A stretch of 53,769 bases of DNA, from the NCBI GenBank assembly GCA_903994795.1, contig CAJEYI010000003.1, positions 1-53,769 on the forward strand. The letters run 5' to 3'. The position numbers and the translations under genes were made by a program. Position 1 is the stretch's first letter, and every line of letters begins with the position of its first letter. Below are positions 13,885-43,847 of this stretch, in pieces. Below the pieces are notes generated by a model. That model worked only from the letters and a program-made list of their open reading frames with translations. It was not told the DNA's origin and did no database searches. This DNA comes from an uncultured bacterium. GTDB lineage: Bacteria; Patescibacteriota; Minisyncoccia; Phycocordibacterales; Phycocordibacteraceae.

Positions 13885-13941
13885 AAAACTCAGAAAAACT
13901 TTAGAACACTTTGAAGATTATTTCATCACTGAAATTATAAT
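13885..13941 (+). promoter_or_regulatory. Repeated promoter module, copy 1
   Basis: AAAACTCAGAAAAACTTTAGAAC (13885-13907), TTATTTCATC 10 nt later, TATAAT at 13936-13941. Confidence 0.8.
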
Positions 13942-22336: not shown

Positions 22337-23230
22337 CTATTGTGGCTGAATTGGGTCGAAGAGTGCAATGAGATATGCATTAATGGTGCGTTGATCGAGT
22401 GTGTAGAAGTTCTGATTTTCTGCGTGAAGCATTGCAGCGAGCTTCACTCCGACAAATCTCCAATGCCATGGTTCATACGTGTAGTATCCGTTACCGCTTG
22501 GATATGAAAGTATGAAGCCGTATTTGTATGCGTTCGCAGTAAGCCACGTATTTGCAGGTGTCTTTTCAAATCCCGTAAACGAGTCCTTCACGGTCTTTGT
22601 CGTAAGGTCTACCGCTGTACCGAGCTGATGTTCCGAATATCCTTGGTCTGCAGAGAATGCATTTGCCGTGCCTTTTCCGTACGTGACTTTGTATGCGGAC
22701 TTTAGAATTGCCTGTGTGCCAAACGAACGATACGAAGAAATAACAGAAAGGTCAGCTCCAGATGCTCGCGAAGCATCAATCATTGCTGTAAGGAATGGAA
22801 GCGCATCTGATTGGAATTGCAGAGTCTTTATTCCGTACACATATGATGGGTCAATATTTGAAAGTTTCGCTGGGACGTAGTTTTCACTGAGGAAGAAAAC
22901 CTTTGAATATTTTTCGAGGAGTTCAGGATCTGTACTGGCGAGTTTTGAAAGCGTGCCGACGGTTGTTGAAAGGGAACTGATTTGCGTACCGAAAGAATTA
23001 TTGAGTTCTGATAGTTGCGCTTCTAGTTGAGCATTCTTTGATTGCTCGTTTGTGAGCGCATCTGACTGTTGTTGCGCTGCAATTGTAAGCGAGGCGGTCG
23101 TGGACGCGAGGTCGGACTTCGTGATTTGGAGTTCCTTTGTGAGAAGGTAGTACCGGTACCCGCCAAATGCTACGACAGCGACAAGAATAATTCCGCCAAT
23201 CCAAGGTCCCCAAGTGCGTAGAATAGTCAT
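22337..23230 (-). CDS. Membrane-anchored M15B (VanY-like) D,D-/L,D-carboxypeptidase
   Basis: TM + coiled coil, SSYRS, SEHQLGTAVD (SxHxxGxAxD), YEPWHWRF. Confidence 0.92.
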   Translation of the reverse strand: MTILRTWGPWIGGIILVAVVAFGGYRYYLLTKELQITKSDLASTTASLTIAAQQQSDALTNEQSKNAQLEAQLSELNNSFGTQISSLSTTVGTLSKLASTDPELLEKYSKVFFLSENYVPAKLSNIDPSYVYGIKTLQFQSDALPFLTAMIDASRASGADLSVISSYRSFGTQAILKSAYKVTYGKGTANAFSADQGYSEHQLGTAVDLTTKTVKDSFTGFEKTPANTWLTANAYKYGFILSYPSGNGYYTYEPWHWRFVGVKLAAMLHAENQNFYTLDQRTINAYLIALFDPIQPQ

Positions 23231-23286
23231 GTATTTTATTGTACGGCAAGAATCAAGAAATCATACTTTTGACGATACGATAGATA

Positions 23287-23319
23287 GAAAAACACCTCGG
23301 TTTTTCCGAGGTGTTTTTC
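23287..23319. terminator. Intrinsic terminator hairpin (bidirectional-type)
   Basis: GAAAAACACCTCGG-TTTTT-CCGAGGTGTTTTTC. Confidence 0.75.
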
Positions 23320-23400
23320 CTGTATCCCGCTTGGAAGCGGTGCAGATTGCCTTTATTAAGAATATTCTAAGTACGTATTTTGTCAACACATACATAACTA

Positions 23401-23469
23401 TGCCGGCGGAAGGAATCGAACCTTCGGGATACAAGTTGGCAATCTCACACCTGCTACCAAGCCGCCGAC
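23401..23469 (-). ncRNA. Non-canonical tRNA-like RNA (GCC/Gly-type loop, shrunken D arm, 8-bp anticodon-like stem)
   Basis: Minus strand: GTCGGCG GCT-TGGT-AGC A GGTGTGAG-ATTGCCAA-CTTGTATC CC GAAGG-TTCGATT-CCTTC CGCCGGC A; -10 box 7 nt upstream. Confidence 0.7.
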
Positions 23470-23476
23470 CGTATTA

Positions 23477-23535
23477 AGAGTAGCAATTCACTCATGAAGG
23501 AATCCTCAAGTGGTTCTAAAGTTTTTCTGAGTTTT
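23477..23535 (-). promoter_or_regulatory. Repeated promoter module, copy 2 (upstream of the tRNA-like RNA)
   Basis: Reverse complement of 23513-23535 is AAAACTCAGAAAAACTTTAGAAC; TTCCTTCATG 10 nt later; TGC-TACTCT at 23482-23477. Confidence 0.8.
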
Positions 23536-23647: not shown

Positions 23648-25726
23648 ATGGCAAAGAAAGTAGATAAAACATCGGAATACGATGCGTCAAGCATTACGGT
23701 CCTTGAAGGACTAGAGCCAGTTCGTAAACGTCCCGGCATGTACATCGGAACCACTGGTCCTGATGGTCTTCACCACCTCATCTGGGAAATCTTCGATAAC
23801 TCACGCGACGAAGCGATGGGCGAGTATGCTGACGACATCGAGATCACACTTCTTCCTGGTGGATACGTGCGAGTTGTAGATAACGGTCGTGGTATTCCTG
23901 TGGGAATTCACCCAAAGACAAAAGTCTCTGCGCTCGAGACAATCATGACGACCCTCCATGCTGGAGGAAAGTTCGGTGGTGAAGATTCAGGATACAAAGT
24001 GTCTGGAGGTCTTCACGGTGTGGGAGCATCTGTGGTGAACGCACTTTCAGAGCACACAAAGGTGATTGTGCACAAAGAAGGCTCGAAGCACATGCAGGAA
24101 TACAAGATTGGTATTGCACAATCGAAAGTGAAAGTCATTGGAAAAACTGCGAACACTGGTTCGATAGTGTTCTTCAAACCAGACGTCACGATCTTCAAGG
24201 ACGGTATTAATTTCAGTTGGGAGAAAATCGTCGCGCACATTCGTCAGCAGGCATATCTCGTGAAGGACACGCGCATGACGATCATTGATGCTCGTGAAGC
24301 AGGAATGGTAGACACCGAGGAAGATTTTTATGTACGTGACCAGATGAATTCTGGAAAGCTTGATGTGCCAAGCATGACGTTCTATTTCGAGAATGGTCTT
24401 CGCTCACTCATTGCATTTTATAATCAGCACCAGGTACCAGTTCACAAGAATATTTTCTATGTAGATAAAGAGCAGGACAACGTGATGGTTGAGCTTGCGC
24501 TTCAGTACGTCGATGACACCACTCCTCGACTCACAGCGTTTGCAAACAATACATACAACTCTGAGGGTGGCACGCACGTCACGGGTTTCAAGACTGCTCT
24601 CACACGTATTCTCAATAACTACGCTCGTTCAATTGGTGTACTAAAGGAAAGCGAAGAAAACTTCACGGGAGACGATGCACTTGAAGGTATCACTGCGGTG
24701 GTATCTGTGAAGATGCCTGAAATTCAGTTCGAAGGACAAACAAAGGCAAAGCTTGGATCGGTTGAGGCACAGGGAGCAGTGAATACAGTCTTCACTGCAG
24801 CATTTACTTCATTCCTCGAAGAGAATCCTGACGACGGTCGTGCAATTGTAAACAAGGTGCTTCTCGCACTCAAGGCTCGAAAGGCAGCAAAGGCAGCAAA
24901 GGACTCAGTGCTTCGAAAGGGGGCACTCGAAGGAATGACACTTCCCGGAAAGCTTTCTGACTGTCAGAGTAAGGACGCAACAGAGTCAGAGATCTTCATT
25001 GTGGAGGGAGATTCAGCTGGAGGTACTACAAAGGCTGGTCGTGACCGTCGCACACAGGCCGTGCTGCCGCTTCGAGGAAAGATTCTAAACATTGAGCGAG
25101 CACGACTTGATAAGATGCTCGCGTCAGAGCAGATCAAGAACATCGTGATTGCGCTTGGTACAGCGATAGGAGACGTCTTCGATCTCTCAAAGCTTCGCTA
25201 TCACAAGATCATCATTGCAACTGACGCCGACGTGGACGGTGCCCATATTCGCACGCTCCTACTCACACTCTTCTACCGACACTTCCGTGCCGTTATTGAT
25301 GGAGGATTTATATACATCGCACAACCACCTCTCTACAAAATCAAGAAAGGAAAGGAGATTTTCTACGCATACACAGACGAAGAACGAAACAAGATTTATA
25401 AAACTCTTGGTGGAGAAGATGTGGTTATCGAAGAAGTGGAAAGTGATGCAGATGAACAGGAAGAGGAGAGTGAGGATGAGGCAGCAACAAGTAAGACAAA
25501 GCGTGTAAACAAAATCCAGCTCCAGCGATACAAAGGTCTCGGAGAGATGAACGCGTCAGAGCTTTGGGAAACAACTATGGATCCAAATCGTCGTGTGCTT
25601 AAGCGTGTCACTGTAGATGATGGCGCAGAAGCAGACCGTATTTTCGATATTCTTATGGGCTCAGATGTAGCAAGCCGAAAGTCATTCATTCAGTCAAACG
25701 CAAAACTCGCGAATCTGGATGTTTAG
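23648..25726 (+). CDS. gyrB: DNA gyrase subunit B
   Basis: LEGLEPVRKRPGMYIG, LHAGGKF, VEGDSAGG, PLRGK, DADVDGAHI, QRYKGLGEM. Confidence 0.97.
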   Translation: MAKKVDKTSEYDASSITVLEGLEPVRKRPGMYIGTTGPDGLHHLIWEIFDNSRDEAMGEYADDIEITLLPGGYVRVVDNGRGIPVGIHPKTKVSALETIMTTLHAGGKFGGEDSGYKVSGGLHGVGASVVNALSEHTKVIVHKEGSKHMQEYKIGIAQSKVKVIGKTANTGSIVFFKPDVTIFKDGINFSWEKIVAHIRQQAYLVKDTRMTIIDAREAGMVDTEEDFYVRDQMNSGKLDVPSMTFYFENGLRSLIAFYNQHQVPVHKNIFYVDKEQDNVMVELALQYVDDTTPRLTAFANNTYNSEGGTHVTGFKTALTRILNNYARSIGVLKESEENFTGDDALEGITAVVSVKMPEIQFEGQTKAKLGSVEAQGAVNTVFTAAFTSFLEENPDDGRAIVNKVLLALKARKAAKAAKDSVLRKGALEGMTLPGKLSDCQSKDATESEIFIVEGDSAGGTTKAGRDRRTQAVLPLRGKILNIERARLDKMLASEQIKNIVIALGTAIGDVFDLSKLRYHKIIIATDADVDGAHIRTLLLTLFYRHFRAVIDGGFIYIAQPPLYKIKKGKEIFYAYTDEERNKIYKTLGGEDVVIEEVESDADEQEEESEDEAATSKTKRVNKIQLQRYKGLGEMNASELWETTMDPNRRVLKRVTVDDGAEADRIFDILMGSDVASRKSFIQSNAKLANLDV

Positions 25727-26502
25727 TTCCCAGTCTGTGTGATAGTGACTGCGGCAGCTGCGCTATTGTTACCTTCGTTTGACTCGAAGATTGTATTGTT
25801 TGAATCTGCTTGAATTGTAATAGTTTGTGCAGGGCCTGGAATTGCTTGATTGAATCCAAGTGTGAATACTGTGTGGTCTCCAGGATTAAGAGATGGTTCG
25901 ATAGGGGAATTAAAGAAGGTATTATTGATTGAAGGAATGCGTGCGATAAAGTTCCATGGGCCGGTAGAATTTGTGCCGTTGTTTGCTATAGAAAATTTCA
26001 CCGCAGGGCGTGCGCCGGGCGGGATGATGTTTGCCGGCACGAAAGACTCAGTAGATTCTGTAGTGAGATATCCAGTAGCGATGATAGATACTGAAAGGTC
26101 CGAGTATCCATATGGTGCAGATGCATGAGAGGTTGACTCAGGCGGCACTGTCTTGTGAGGTGTAGTAGGTACAGTGACAGGTGCAGTTAAAGCAGCGGCA
26201 ATGATTGGAGAGGAACTTGCTGTTGGAGGATTGATTGTGGTTGTCTGTGAGACAATCATTCCAGAATTATTTGGTGGAGTCGTTGATGAGACAACAAGCA
26301 CTGGCGTGTCATCAGAATGCTTCGGCCCAGTGAGTTTTGAAATAGCTAGAGGAATGTATCGAGCACTATAAATAGCAAGTGTAATACCTAGAATAAGTAG
26401 TGCAATAAATCCAACAGTCGCAAGTGCCGCAACGGCTGAACGTCGCGCAGGGGACTGCGTGGTTGTTCGTGTTGTCTGGTCGATGGTTACATTCGAAGTC
26501 AT
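25723..26502 (-). CDS. Membrane-anchored protein with Pro/Thr linker and C-terminal CARDB-like domain
   Basis: TM segment, PT-rich stalk, DLSVSI...IANNGT...ADSNNTIFESNEGNN; start set at ATG 26502. Confidence 0.8.
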   Translation of the reverse strand: MTSNVTIDQTTRTTTQSPARRSAVAALATVGFIALLILGITLAIYSARYIPLAISKLTGPKHSDDTPVLVVSSTTPPNNSGMIVSQTTTINPPTASSSPIIAAALTAPVTVPTTPHKTVPPESTSHASAPYGYSDLSVSIIATGYLTTESTESFVPANIIPPGARPAVKFSIANNGTNSTGPWNFIARIPSINNTFFNSPIEPSLNPGDHTVFTLGFNQAIPGPAQTITIQADSNNTIFESNEGNNSAAAAVTITQTGN

Positions 26503-26621
26503 ATGTAACTTATATTTAACATACTCAAATACCTTTGTCAATAGGTCATACTCAATTATGAAGAAAATGTCAAAAGACCTTGACAATTGCTTCATTGTGG
26601 TGTATTTATATAGAAGGCCAT

Positions 26622-27407
26622 ATGAATGCAGCACAAACAACAGTCAGTGTTATCCGAGCCGGAAAACAGGCATATGCTAAGAAAGGGACCTTCTTGGTGC
26701 TTTTCCTAGTCATCACATTGATAGTGGTACGTGTTGCATTTGTCACGGGATTCGTTCCGAATCCCGTCGACTTCAGCACAATCGGTAGCGACGTGTCGAA
26801 TTCAAGTGTCTCACTTGGGAACTCACCACTAGCTGTTGGATTGCCGCTAAGTGTGGTCACAGGCACACCTGATACTTCGACACACACAGATACGAATGCA
26901 TCAGCACAAACTCAGAATGCTTCGCAGGCACATGCTTCAGCCGGATCTCTAAATATGAATGGAGAACTCCCGGTGAAGATTACTATTGCAAGCATCGGAC
27001 TTTCTGCTAAAGTTTCAAATCCTGCAACGACAGATGTTGATGCGCTTGATCAATACCTTCTGTCAGGCACTGCTCGATACCCAACGTCGTCTACGCTTGA
27101 TCAGGAAGGAAATGTGATTCTCTTTGGACATTCAAGTTATCTACCTGTTGTGATCAATAAGGCATTTAAGACCTTTGATGGAATTCAGAAATTGAGTGCA
27201 GGAGATGAGATTAAGGTGTACAGCTCCACTCATGTCTATACGTACTCAGTAACAAACGTGCAACAGCAAAGCGCCACCTCAGACGGTATTCCTCTTACCA
27301 CATCTGGTCACACACTTACACTCGCAACGTGTGACTCATTTGGAAAGAAGAGTGATCGTTTCGTTGTGACCGCAACACTCGTTGGAAGCTCTGCGCTTGG
27401 AAGCTAG
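26622..27407 (+). CDS. Sortase (class D/F-like)
   Basis: N-terminal TM; catalytic triad H (ILFGHSS), C (LTLATC), R (SDRFVV); start at ATG 26622. Confidence 0.9.
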   Translation: MNAAQTTVSVIRAGKQAYAKKGTFLVLFLVITLIVVRVAFVTGFVPNPVDFSTIGSDVSNSSVSLGNSPLAVGLPLSVVTGTPDTSTHTDTNASAQTQNASQAHASAGSLNMNGELPVKITIASIGLSAKVSNPATTDVDALDQYLLSGTARYPTSSTLDQEGNVILFGHSSYLPVVINKAFKTFDGIQKLSAGDEIKVYSSTHVYTYSVTNVQQQSATSDGIPLTTSGHTLTLATCDSFGKKSDRFVVTATLVGSSALGS

Positions 27408-43788: not shown

Positions 43789-43847
43789 AAAACTCAGAAA
43801 AACTTTAGAACGACTTTAGTTTTTCTTCAGCATCAAAATGCCAGACT
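43789..43847 (+). promoter_or_regulatory. Repeated promoter module, copy 3
   Basis: AAAACTCAGAAAAACTTTAGAAC (43789-43811), TTTCTTCAGC 10 nt later, degenerate TGC-CAGACT at the copy-2 spacing. Confidence 0.75.

Follow-up and report, generated by a model that had tools for sequence, protein, structure and literature searches.

A recurrent tandem cassette of a tRNA-like RNA and a predicted complementary small RNA in a genome of the Phycocordibacteraceae

The contig CAJEYI010000003.1 (53,769 nt; assembly GCA_903994795.1, from an uncultured bacterium of the Phycocordibacteraceae, Patescibacteriota) was analysed over its whole length, called the window below, and holds a 69-nt tRNA-like RNA (TLR) followed by the predicted gene of a small RNA that is complementary to it in two blocks. 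The TLR, the promoters and the partner small RNA lie on the minus strand of the window, which is contig C3 of a genome (G000) of 902 kb in 66 contigs that is 96% complete. The pair belongs to a family of which 46 distinct TLRs were examined altogether; its members share one architecture, and the complementary segments of TLR and small RNA co-vary in the sense of RNA read from this strand. We favour, with moderate confidence, the reading that this is a self-contained two-RNA cassette in which the small RNA would open and silence its own tRNA mimic. An earlier note on the window, made from its letters only, had found the TLR and proposed several roles for it; among these we retain the regulatory RNA and set aside the cell-wall aminoacyl donor, and the downstream partner gene (23352-23288) had been missed. 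The features of the cassette are listed here in the order in which they are read.

23513..23532, minus strand: upstream element ACTCAGAAAAACTTTAGAAC, an exact copy of the organism's standard promoter module
23477..23498, minus strand: predicted core promoter of the TLR, TTCATG (23498-23493) and -10 box TACTCT (23482-23477)
23401..23469, minus strand: TLR, 69 nt, read from the sequence and scoring 69.6 bits with covariance model R1
23469-23463 and 23408-23402, minus strand: acceptor stem GTCGGCG / CGCCGGC, 7 pairs including U2.G71
23462-23453, minus strand: D-like arm GCT-TGGT-AGC, 3 bp and a 4-nt loop, abutting the acceptor with zero linker
23451-23444 and 23435-23428, minus strand: anticodon-like stem GGTGTGAG / CTTGTATC, 8 bp of which four are G.U
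23443-23436, minus strand: anticodon-like loop ATTGCCAA, 8 nt, read from the sequence
23425-23409, minus strand: T arm GAAGG-TTCGATT-CCTTC, read from the sequence
23401, minus strand: discriminator A, read from the sequence
23359..23386, minus strand: partner promoter TTGACA, 16 nt, TATTCT (23386-23359), agreeing with the consensus at 10 of 12 positions
23288..23352, minus strand: partner small RNA of about 65 nt with predicted ends, bounded by promoter and terminator and holding blocks complementary to the TLR
23344..23351, minus strand: seed of block 1, GGCAATCT, pairing with TLR AGATTGCC (23445-23438, the loop and two stem bases)
23329..23334, minus strand: end of block 1, CCAAGC, pairing with TLR GCTTGG (23462-23457, the 5' strand of the D-like arm and the GG)
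23319..23329, minus strand: block 2, CGGGATACAGG, pairing with TLR CTTGTATCCCG (23435-23425) in 11 pairs, one of them G.U, at -18.5 kcal/mol
23288..23318, minus strand: intrinsic terminator AAAAACACCTCGG-AAAAA-CCGAGGTGTTTTT, from the sequence and its predicted fold

All the structural elements that the earlier note had listed for the 69-nt TLR are present in the minus-strand sequence, and their details are correct. A single A separates the D-like arm from the anticodon-like stem, the variable region is replaced by a 2-nt CC, and CCA is not encoded at the 3' end. Compared with a canonical tRNA, the TLR keeps the 7-bp acceptor with its discriminator, the 5-bp T stem and the 7-nt T loop (TTCRANY), and lacks the U8/N9 linker, the 7-11-nt D loop, the 5-bp anticodon stem, the 7-nt anticodon loop and a variable region of at least 4 nt; this non-canonical layout is common to the whole TLR family. 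ARAGORN leaves the TLR uncalled and returns tRNA-Thr(TGT) as its sole call in the window, and a search of the window against Rfam at the gathering threshold likewise finds that tRNA only. At a permissive threshold the tRNA family RF00005 gives the TLR 20.5 bits against a cut-off of 29, the aligned part consisting of the T arm and acceptor only, and the local 401 nt show besides this partial match only sub-threshold terminator look-alikes (MCS4, SpF25, rimP leader). The tRNA-finder scores that had been suggested as a check on the TLR are in this sense negative. Its minimum-energy fold (-24.5 kcal/mol) lies near the cloverleaf (-22.9 kcal/mol), with a folding z-score of -0.99 that is no better than that of shuffles. 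By itself the TLR of the window is not above chance, and its significance rests on its relatives.

A search of the module against 60 relatives by BLAST returned ordinary tRNAs only, by way of their common T arm, so that pattern and covariance-model searches were needed. Within G000 the only other BLAST match to the TLR region of the window was a paralogous TLR on contig C10, and a motif search gave a third copy on contig C9. Pattern scans covered 201 genomes of the same genus, a collection of species-representative genomes, and metagenome contigs, the metagenome pattern being built from TLR features only with none from the partner RNA. Among the metagenome matches listed, six of the eight new sequences (7/7 acceptor pairs, 5/5 T-stem pairs, no ARAGORN call) come with a partner; L091 is identical to L016 and was counted once. 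With covariance model R1 the three G000 copies score 69.6 (window), 53.8 and 33.6 bits, against at most 26.7 bits for all 36 true tRNAs, the C9 copy standing outside the training set of R1 and carrying a 27-nt hairpin insertion. TLR-type matches to R1, taken as those of 67-70 nt and 40 bits or more, were found in 18 of 151 same-genus genomes, with up to six per genome, and in the rest of the order in one of 150 genomes, there with the full cassette. Homologous modules were found in Candidatus Paceibacterota, Parcubacteria and Candidatus Kaiserbacteria. Of 45 TLRs given to ARAGORN, L032 alone is called, as an unusual tRNA-Glu, and no Rfam family matches any of 20 module loci.

Several groups of matches were rejected. 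Eight of the 14 pattern matches in the species-representative collection were ordinary tRNAs or chance, as were most of the 119 metagenome pattern matches listed (tRNA-Phe, Cys or SeC, or chance); L127, GC-rich and without a partner, was taken as a chance match. Viral contigs gave 10 pattern matches, none of them a TLR (best 27.6 bits). Those R1 matches of 71-90 nt and 32-44 bits that were inspected are real tRNA-Met and tRNA-Leu. The C9 copy (contig C9:4717-4815, minus strand; L159:1501-1599) has a particular form: immediately ahead of its T loop, 27 inserted nt that form a perfect 12-bp hairpin take the place of the 5' strand of the T stem. The small RNA of this copy still complements it perfectly over 15 nt.

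In a MAFFT alignment of 14 TLRs the cloverleaf is paired at 87.5%, compared with 79.6% for shuffled alignments, none of 500 of which is paired as well; 12 of its 20 pairs change on both sides. By stem, pairing amounts to 99% in the acceptor, 100% in the T stem, and 69-70% in the D and anticodon-like stems, the last figures being low because the MAFFT register slips. The homologue search with covariation analysis that had been proposed thus turns up homologues with compensatory changes. It also bears out the suggestion of a maintained compact tRNA shape rather than random decay: throughout the 46 copies the D arm is reduced in one and the same way, the anticodon-like stem is long and the T arm is kept. 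As to origin, an acceptor GCCGGCG/CGCCGGC with A73 that is shared in full with elongator tRNA-Met genes from relatives (L181, L182 and genome G122), and the retention of CTCAT..AA in one class of TLR loops, indicate that the family probably descends from elongator tRNA-Met.

The partner gene is as regular a part of the module as the TLR. A promoter of the form TTGAC-N16-18-TAnnnT lies downstream of 43 of the 46 TLRs, its TTGAC being invariant in the 24-module alignment A3, and a hairpin with a T run, the terminator, is found in 38 of the 46 modules. The gene sits 15-60 nt downstream of the TLR on the same strand and would give a small RNA of about 65-80 nt. Complementarity of at least 8 nt to the TLR occurs within 40 nt of the partner -10 box for 42 of the 46 TLRs, and in 37 of these 42 the complementary segment starts 5-8 nt past that box, at the predicted 5' end; the second block usually fits the 3' stem strand of the TLR. 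Sequences differ from copy to copy under the same design, as with CCTGACAGTCT and AGGCTGTCAGG on C10 and GGATCGGTATTGTCA and TGACAATACCGATCC on C9, and other complements measure 14 + 11 nt (L016), 20 + 11 nt (L014) and 23 nt (L178). Each TLR tends to match its own partner best: RNAduplex places the cognate downstream region ahead of all others in 13 of 15 modules (mean -38.5 vs -23.1 kcal/mol, sd 6.4, for non-cognate ones), and an ungapped score does so in 33 of 45 modules, most exceptions losing to a module of the same loop class. Within single genomes the cognate partner comes first in 18 of 20 rows.

The intermolecular helix co-varies as well. In a plain MAFFT alignment of 24 whole modules its 14 pairs are 76.3% paired, compared with 57.1% in shuffles (never as high as observed in 500) and 37-46% in slid registers, and 12 of the 14 change on both sides. 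Internal exceptions to complementarity are G.U-type in 31 cases, A.C-type in 9 and other in 18, and this excess of G.U-type over A.C-type exceptions points to pairing of RNA made from this strand and not to a DNA palindrome. Reading frames anchored on the T loop are not consistently open on either strand (median stretches of 30-58 codons, minima of 5-13), and an antisense protein gene was ruled out, there being no conserved frame.

In the window the seed GGCAATCT begins 7 nt past the partner -10 box, at the predicted 5' end of the small RNA, whose first 23 nt form block 1, a diverged antisense of TLR positions 8-32 that is perfect at its ends. The CCAAGC/GCTTGG match is the third-ranked diagonal of this pair, and the same CCAAGC-type hexamer relation was seen by eye in L016, L032 and L073. 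Block 2 is antisense to TLR positions 35-45, the 3' strand of the anticodon-like stem; a small hairpin stands between seed and terminator, and there is no start codon at the 5' end of this small RNA. The dimer folds at -63.4 kcal/mol, compared with -52.7 for the two RNAs apart (TLR -24.5, small RNA -28.2). The duplexes of block 1 (-34.7 kcal/mol) and block 2 (-18.5) would displace structures of -7.0 (TLR arms) and -9.3 kcal/mol (5' domain of the small RNA). Taken together the two blocks give a crossing topology that leaves the acceptor/T minihelix intact.

The promoter that the earlier note had placed ahead of the TLR as part of a repeated module is real, ACTCAGAAAAACTTTAGAAC having 13 genomic copies at no more than one mismatch. 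These are mostly followed after about 20 nt by TTCA, then 10-12 nt, TAnnnT, and an ATG 6-9 nt further on; since the ATG stands only 6-9 nt past the -10 box, many mRNAs of the organism would be leaderless. The three G000 TLR copies have one layout (TTCA, 11-12 nt, TAnnCT, 6-7 nt, G1), with 7 nt between the end of TACTCT and G1 in the window. As G1 occupies the place of the ATG in the standard layout, the TLR would start at G1, leaderless. Further ACTCAGAAAAACTTTAGAAC sites lie in the window at 13888-13907 and 43792-43811 (both plus strand) and on many other G000 contigs, and the 20-mer also occurs in genome G114 (L014).

We infer that both RNAs are made, that they pair in trans, which partner controls which, and what role the free mimic has; on the favoured reading events might run as follows. 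The TLR would be transcribed from the standard promoter, starting at or next to G1, and would fold as a compact cloverleaf that retains the acceptor/T-arm half of a tRNA, with only 3 bp and a 4-nt loop left of the D arm, and an anticodon arm that has grown to about 8 bp and carries a loop of 8-9 nt. The second gene, with its own near-consensus sigma-70 promoter and intrinsic terminator, would yield a small RNA of some 65-80 nt with two complementary blocks, block 1 being antisense, from its extreme 5' end onward, to the loop, the D-like arm and the 5' side of the long stem. Pairing may nucleate where the unpaired 5' end of the small RNA meets the exposed loop, strand displacement would spread the duplex through the 5' strand and D arm, and the released 3' strand would be captured by block 2. 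The outcome would be an unfolded D/anticodon half beside an intact acceptor/T minihelix. The small RNA would in this way switch off or titrate the one tRNA mimic encoded beside it, and RNase III would be likely to cleave the long duplex.

A number of points weigh against this reading. Promoters, RNA ends and trans action are predictions from sequence. The shuffle controls overstate significance because the family members are related. Complementary stretches of 12-16 nt, G.U allowed, arise by chance genome-wide, and the case therefore rests on position and family-wide co-variation and not on the window alone, whose complementarity (8 + 6 + 11 nt) is weaker than that of any other family member. 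When the modules of the genome are scored against one another, the TLR of the window reaches 20.5 with the downstream region of C10 and 18.3 with its own partner, and the crossing of blocks 1 and 2 is a topology beyond what the folding programs used can score. Three of the 46 TLRs have no partner (L172, L128, L179). Of these L172 (G122:C2:99122-99190; L172:1501-1569; 61 bits) looks intact, has no downstream promoter or small RNA, and has no complement to its loop anywhere in its genome, which argues that a TLR can exist unpaired. Finally, most copies lack a terminator between TLR and small RNA, and block 1 pairing is predicted to form in cis in the read-through RNA of 6 of the 7 modules folded, so that trans action is not required by the data.

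Some further observations were made on these copies. An open reading frame begins immediately past the TLR of L172. The competing C10 segment spans the loop and the 3' strand of the terminator in that copy's small RNA (GCAATCTGGTGCTTGTTGCT, contig C10 at about 23200-23240), a 20-nt G.U-rich complement to window TLR positions 12-31 (23439-23458); GCAATCTG is common to it and the seed of the window small RNA, and the match is either cross-talk between cassettes or chance. In 8 of the 46 modules (L073, L169, L171, L175, L177, L178, L184, L207) a DnaA box lies at offset 8 (0-based) past the TLR 3' end, by eye about 15 nt upstream of the partner -35 element. It is perfect (TTATCCACA) in seven modules and one base off (TTTTCCACA) in L175; L173 and L173b have near-matches, and the three G000 copies do not have it. 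Modules with the box differ in block 2 of the small RNA, whose complement there is the T arm (GAGGGTTCGA). The small RNAs belonging to TLRs with the loop CCTCATCAA (L014, L100, L176, L180, L198, L202, L203, L205, L206) have a predicted 5' end of AUG AGG G.. or AUG GGG G.., followed in most by a stop after 6-15 codons, and could be read as leaderless mini-ORFs; the AUGAGGG start is not independent evidence for this because it is forced by the loop complementarity.

The loops of the TLRs fall into recurrent classes, given here with the discriminator base; L239, found later, is not included.

CCTCATCAA (CAT): 9 TLRs, discriminator A in 8 of 9
NGTCA (GTC): 19 TLRs, discriminator T in 18 of 19
YGGTA (GGT): 12 TLRs, discriminator T in 9 of 12
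CTGACA (GAC): 2 TLRs, discriminator A in 2 of 2
TTGTTAA: 1 TLR, discriminator T
TTGCCAA (window): 1 TLR, discriminator A
Unclassed loop (L179): 1 TLR, discriminator G

Within the window loop, UUGCCAA is identical to the whole 7-nt anticodon loop of the tRNA-Gly(GCC) of the genome, and in the other copies compared about 4-6 of 7 positions match the corresponding real anticodon loops (by eye). The idea of strict copies of anticodon loops is weakened by this difference between 7/7 in the window and some 4-6/7 elsewhere, and the loop sequences give hints of anticodon-loop mimicry. The YUNR U-turn motif, examined by eye, does not fit all loop classes.

These classes bear on the reversed reading, which we consider unlikely: the small RNA would be an effector with other targets, such as tRNA anticodon loops or mRNA 5' ends, and the TLR a tRNA-scaffolded sponge or antisense to it. 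Loop motifs that recur while the flanking stems vary (9, 19 and 12 TLRs in the three largest classes) are expected here because the seed would also need to match something conserved, and the identity of the window loop with the anticodon loop of tRNA-Gly(GCC) fits the same idea. The small RNA is built as a classic seed-hairpin-terminator, and the tRNA shape is a good stabilising scaffold, as known from engineered tRNA scaffolds. Yet the matches to real tRNAs are short, 5 nt between the window small RNA and tRNA-Gly and about 4 nt between the CAT class and tRNA-Met, and a genome-wide k-mer scan gave no outstanding second target for the three G000 small RNAs (chance-level matches of 12-16 nt). 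Moreover, the small RNAs share no scaffold outside their blocks and the TLR scaffold is strongly conserved, which favours the small RNA as the dedicated partner.

A further step beyond the favoured reading, which we put forward tentatively and with low confidence, is an RNA-only addiction or abortive-infection module that works with no protein and has the tRNA mimic as its toxin. A stable mimic would jam a tRNA-dependent step set by its loop, be it a synthetase, a modification enzyme or the ribosome, and a short-lived private small RNA from the stronger promoter would continuously unfold it. Were transcription to stop, through cassette loss or phage takeover, the mimic would be freed and would block translation. 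The patchy, multi-copy, site-polymorphic distribution and the private specificities resemble those of addiction modules; the orphan intact TLR L172 argues against a strict toxin-antidote dependence.

It is rather improbable, in our estimate, that the module makes a single cis-acting RNA, read from the upstream promoter through both parts, with the pairing as an intramolecular switch or processing signal. Besides the missing terminator between the two parts in most copies, the predicted co-transcript speaks for it, that of the window folding at -72.9 kcal/mol compared with -61.7 for separate domains. An internal promoter kept in 43 of 46 modules, and a complementary block that starts at the predicted +1, speak against it. 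L176, L180 and L198 have a hairpin directly 3' of the TLR (by eye), which indicates separate units there, and the downstream genes differ and have their own promoters (by eye).

Lower still we rate a working unusual tRNA or aminoacyl carrier, gated by the small RNA and serving translation or non-ribosomal donation. The acceptor/T half is fully tRNA-like, with the D-loop GG and the T-loop TTCGATT kept; D stem and anticodon-like stem would together make about 11 layers, near the roughly 10 of a tRNA; and the discriminator tracks the loop class, real tRNA-Thr(GGT) having U73 and real tRNA-Met A73. Against this the loop has 8-9 nt rather than 7, and the GTC class has T73 where real tRNA-Asp has G73. 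The acceptor identity of GlyRS is C2-G71 and G3-C70. As the earlier note had stated, the acceptor of the TLR is not like that of tRNA-Gly: it has U2.G71 and C3-G70, and the real tRNA-Gly(GCC), present on contig C4 of G000, begins GCGGATA. The absence of a G3.U70 alanine determinant is likewise confirmed by C3-G70. For the role of donor to the cell wall neither a FemAB nor an Acetyltransf_6 transferase (PF02388, PF13480) was found in G000 (96% complete); the VanY neighbour of the TLR is incidental, and this proposal is not upheld. The patchy distribution, over 18 of 151 genomes, also speaks against a carrier, and TLR anticodons duplicate those of canonical tRNAs. Genome G122 (99% complete) has canonical tRNA-Asp, Thr(GGT), Gly(GCC), Val(GAC) and Met alongside four TLRs, whose loop classes are all covered by these, so that the TLRs are supernumerary. 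Substitution for missing tRNAs was rejected in view of the canonical tRNA-Asp that G122 has together with a GTC-class TLR; G000 is without detectable tRNA-Asp, and its C9 TLR has a GTC loop.

With respect to the real tRNAs, G000 and G122 each have one CAT tRNA (ARAGORN, Rfam), of elongator type with G1-C72 paired, and an initiator-type tRNA was seen in neither by these two tools. tRNA-Phe was not detected in G000, and G122 (99% complete) gave no calls for tRNA-His and tRNA-Ala. In L238 a tRNA-Ala(TGC) can be followed from its 5' side as far as the anticodon arm and is then interrupted, perhaps by an intron.

A decayed tRNA pseudogene or integration-site remnant with downstream complementarity by chance has a negligible probability in our view: the lack of an ARAGORN call, the sub-threshold Rfam score, the folding z-score of only -0.99 and the short complementary blocks of the window are what decay would leave, but 46 copies of one non-canonical architecture with compensatory changes, a conserved promoter, partner RNA and terminator, and the intermolecular co-variation contradict it, and so do both acceptor strands of the window TLR, unlike a tRNA 3'-end fragment, and its surroundings, in which neither an integrase nor a duplicate of a resident tRNA end was found, so that the integration-site remnant named earlier as a refuting case was not seen.

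The neighbours of the TLR in the window are genes for a VanY peptidase and a GyrB/ParE-type topoisomerase subunit. Other copies lie beside grpE/dnaK, an amino-acid kinase, dnaE, an RF-1/2-type release factor, CTP synthase, GAPDH, peptidyl-tRNA hydrolase, a signal peptidase and others, and the C9 copy precedes the 16S rRNA gene by about 350 nt. Between grpE and dnaK, G000 and G114 each have a cassette, the two being of different loop classes; G020, G122 and G143 have none there and carry cassettes elsewhere in the genome. Judging from its unrelated housekeeping neighbours and its presence or absence at a given site, the cassette, some 260 bp long, acts as a unit that is autonomous and dispensable. 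Immediately beyond the GyrB/ParE-type gene, at 25723-27407 of the window, a CARDB-domain gene (minus strand) lies beside a sortase gene (plus strand), which suggests a sortase-anchored surface protein pair.

Neither part of this system is new in kind, tRNA-like RNAs and terminated small RNAs that base-pair both being known; their tandem, co-varying, multi-copy combination is to our knowledge previously undescribed. The accessible portions of the literature on tRNA-like RNA, on small RNA of the candidate phyla radiation (CPR)/Patescibacteria and on RNA toxins contained no description of such a pair, nor, in the same portions, of small-RNA regulators of CPR bacteria. As many as six copies of the cassette, each of about 260 bp and with a matched RNA pair of its own, occur in one genome, and standard tRNA finders silently pass over this whole family of tRNA-derived genes. 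If the pairing is real, the TLR would be a natural tRNA scaffold presenting a programmable recognition hairpin, one cell would hold a set of orthogonal RNA-RNA pairs, and the cassette may control the translation machinery, or impose addiction through it, without any protein.

Among known systems, CreT/CreA pairs a tRNA-sequestering CreT RNA toxin with CreA, which represses creT transcription through the CRISPR effector (PMC8501985, PMC10097628). The likeness lies in a small two-RNA cassette, a patchy distribution, and the translation-related action proposed for the toxic RNA. The TLR cassette would differ by direct RNA-RNA pairing, and no cas genes were seen among the flanking genes scanned. 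The 3'ETS-leuZ sponge, a spacer released from a real tRNA operon, titrates global sRNAs; here too an RNA from a tRNA-type transcription unit would base-pair with a small RNA, but the pairing site is on the tRNA-shaped body itself and the partner is specific and encoded next door.

The tRNA-like domain of tmRNA, YrlA, viral 3' tRNA-like structures and mascRNA mimic the acceptor/T arm, their D region being reduced and their anticodon arm changed or absent, and the TLR is an acceptor/T mimic with a reduced D region like them. We know of no dedicated complementary RNA gene for any of these. Unlike tmRNA, the TLR has 69 nt, no G3.U70 and no reading frame, and a real tmRNA is present on contig C1; unlike the YrlA/Ro system, it has no Rfam match and G000 showed no Ro/TROVE protein (PF05731); unlike viral tRNA-like structures and mascRNA, it does not stand at the end of a viral genome or long precursor.

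T-box riboswitches read a cellular tRNA through the specifier of Stem I and an antiterminator bulge (UGGN) that pairs with NCCA, in pairings of 3-4 nt. The cassette is similar in that a terminator-ended RNA would pair with the anticodon-loop region of a tRNA shape, in the window with a "codon" GGC opposite GCC. It departs from the T-box in having no T-box family match in Rfam (window and 20 module loci) and, by eye, neither a Stem I platform nor a UGGN bulge in the small RNA. The pairing of 8-23 nt and a second block would be directed at a dedicated mimic, and the genes downstream are unrelated and have their own promoters (by eye).

IS10 RNA-IN/RNA-OUT, CopA/CopT and hok/Sok are antisense pairs initiated at a loop, encoded on opposite strands of the same DNA and controlling an mRNA. 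The cassette would share with the IS10 type the free 5' end that attacks a stem-loop, the spread of the duplex into the stem, the private specificity and the tight linkage. It differs from that type, and from type I toxin-antitoxin systems, in that the small RNA of the window has no start codon and the cassette no conserved frame. Unlike in these antisense pairs, its two genes are arranged in tandem on one strand, its stem-loop is the anticodon-like arm of a tRNA shape, and its blocks are permuted, with block 1 ahead of block 2.

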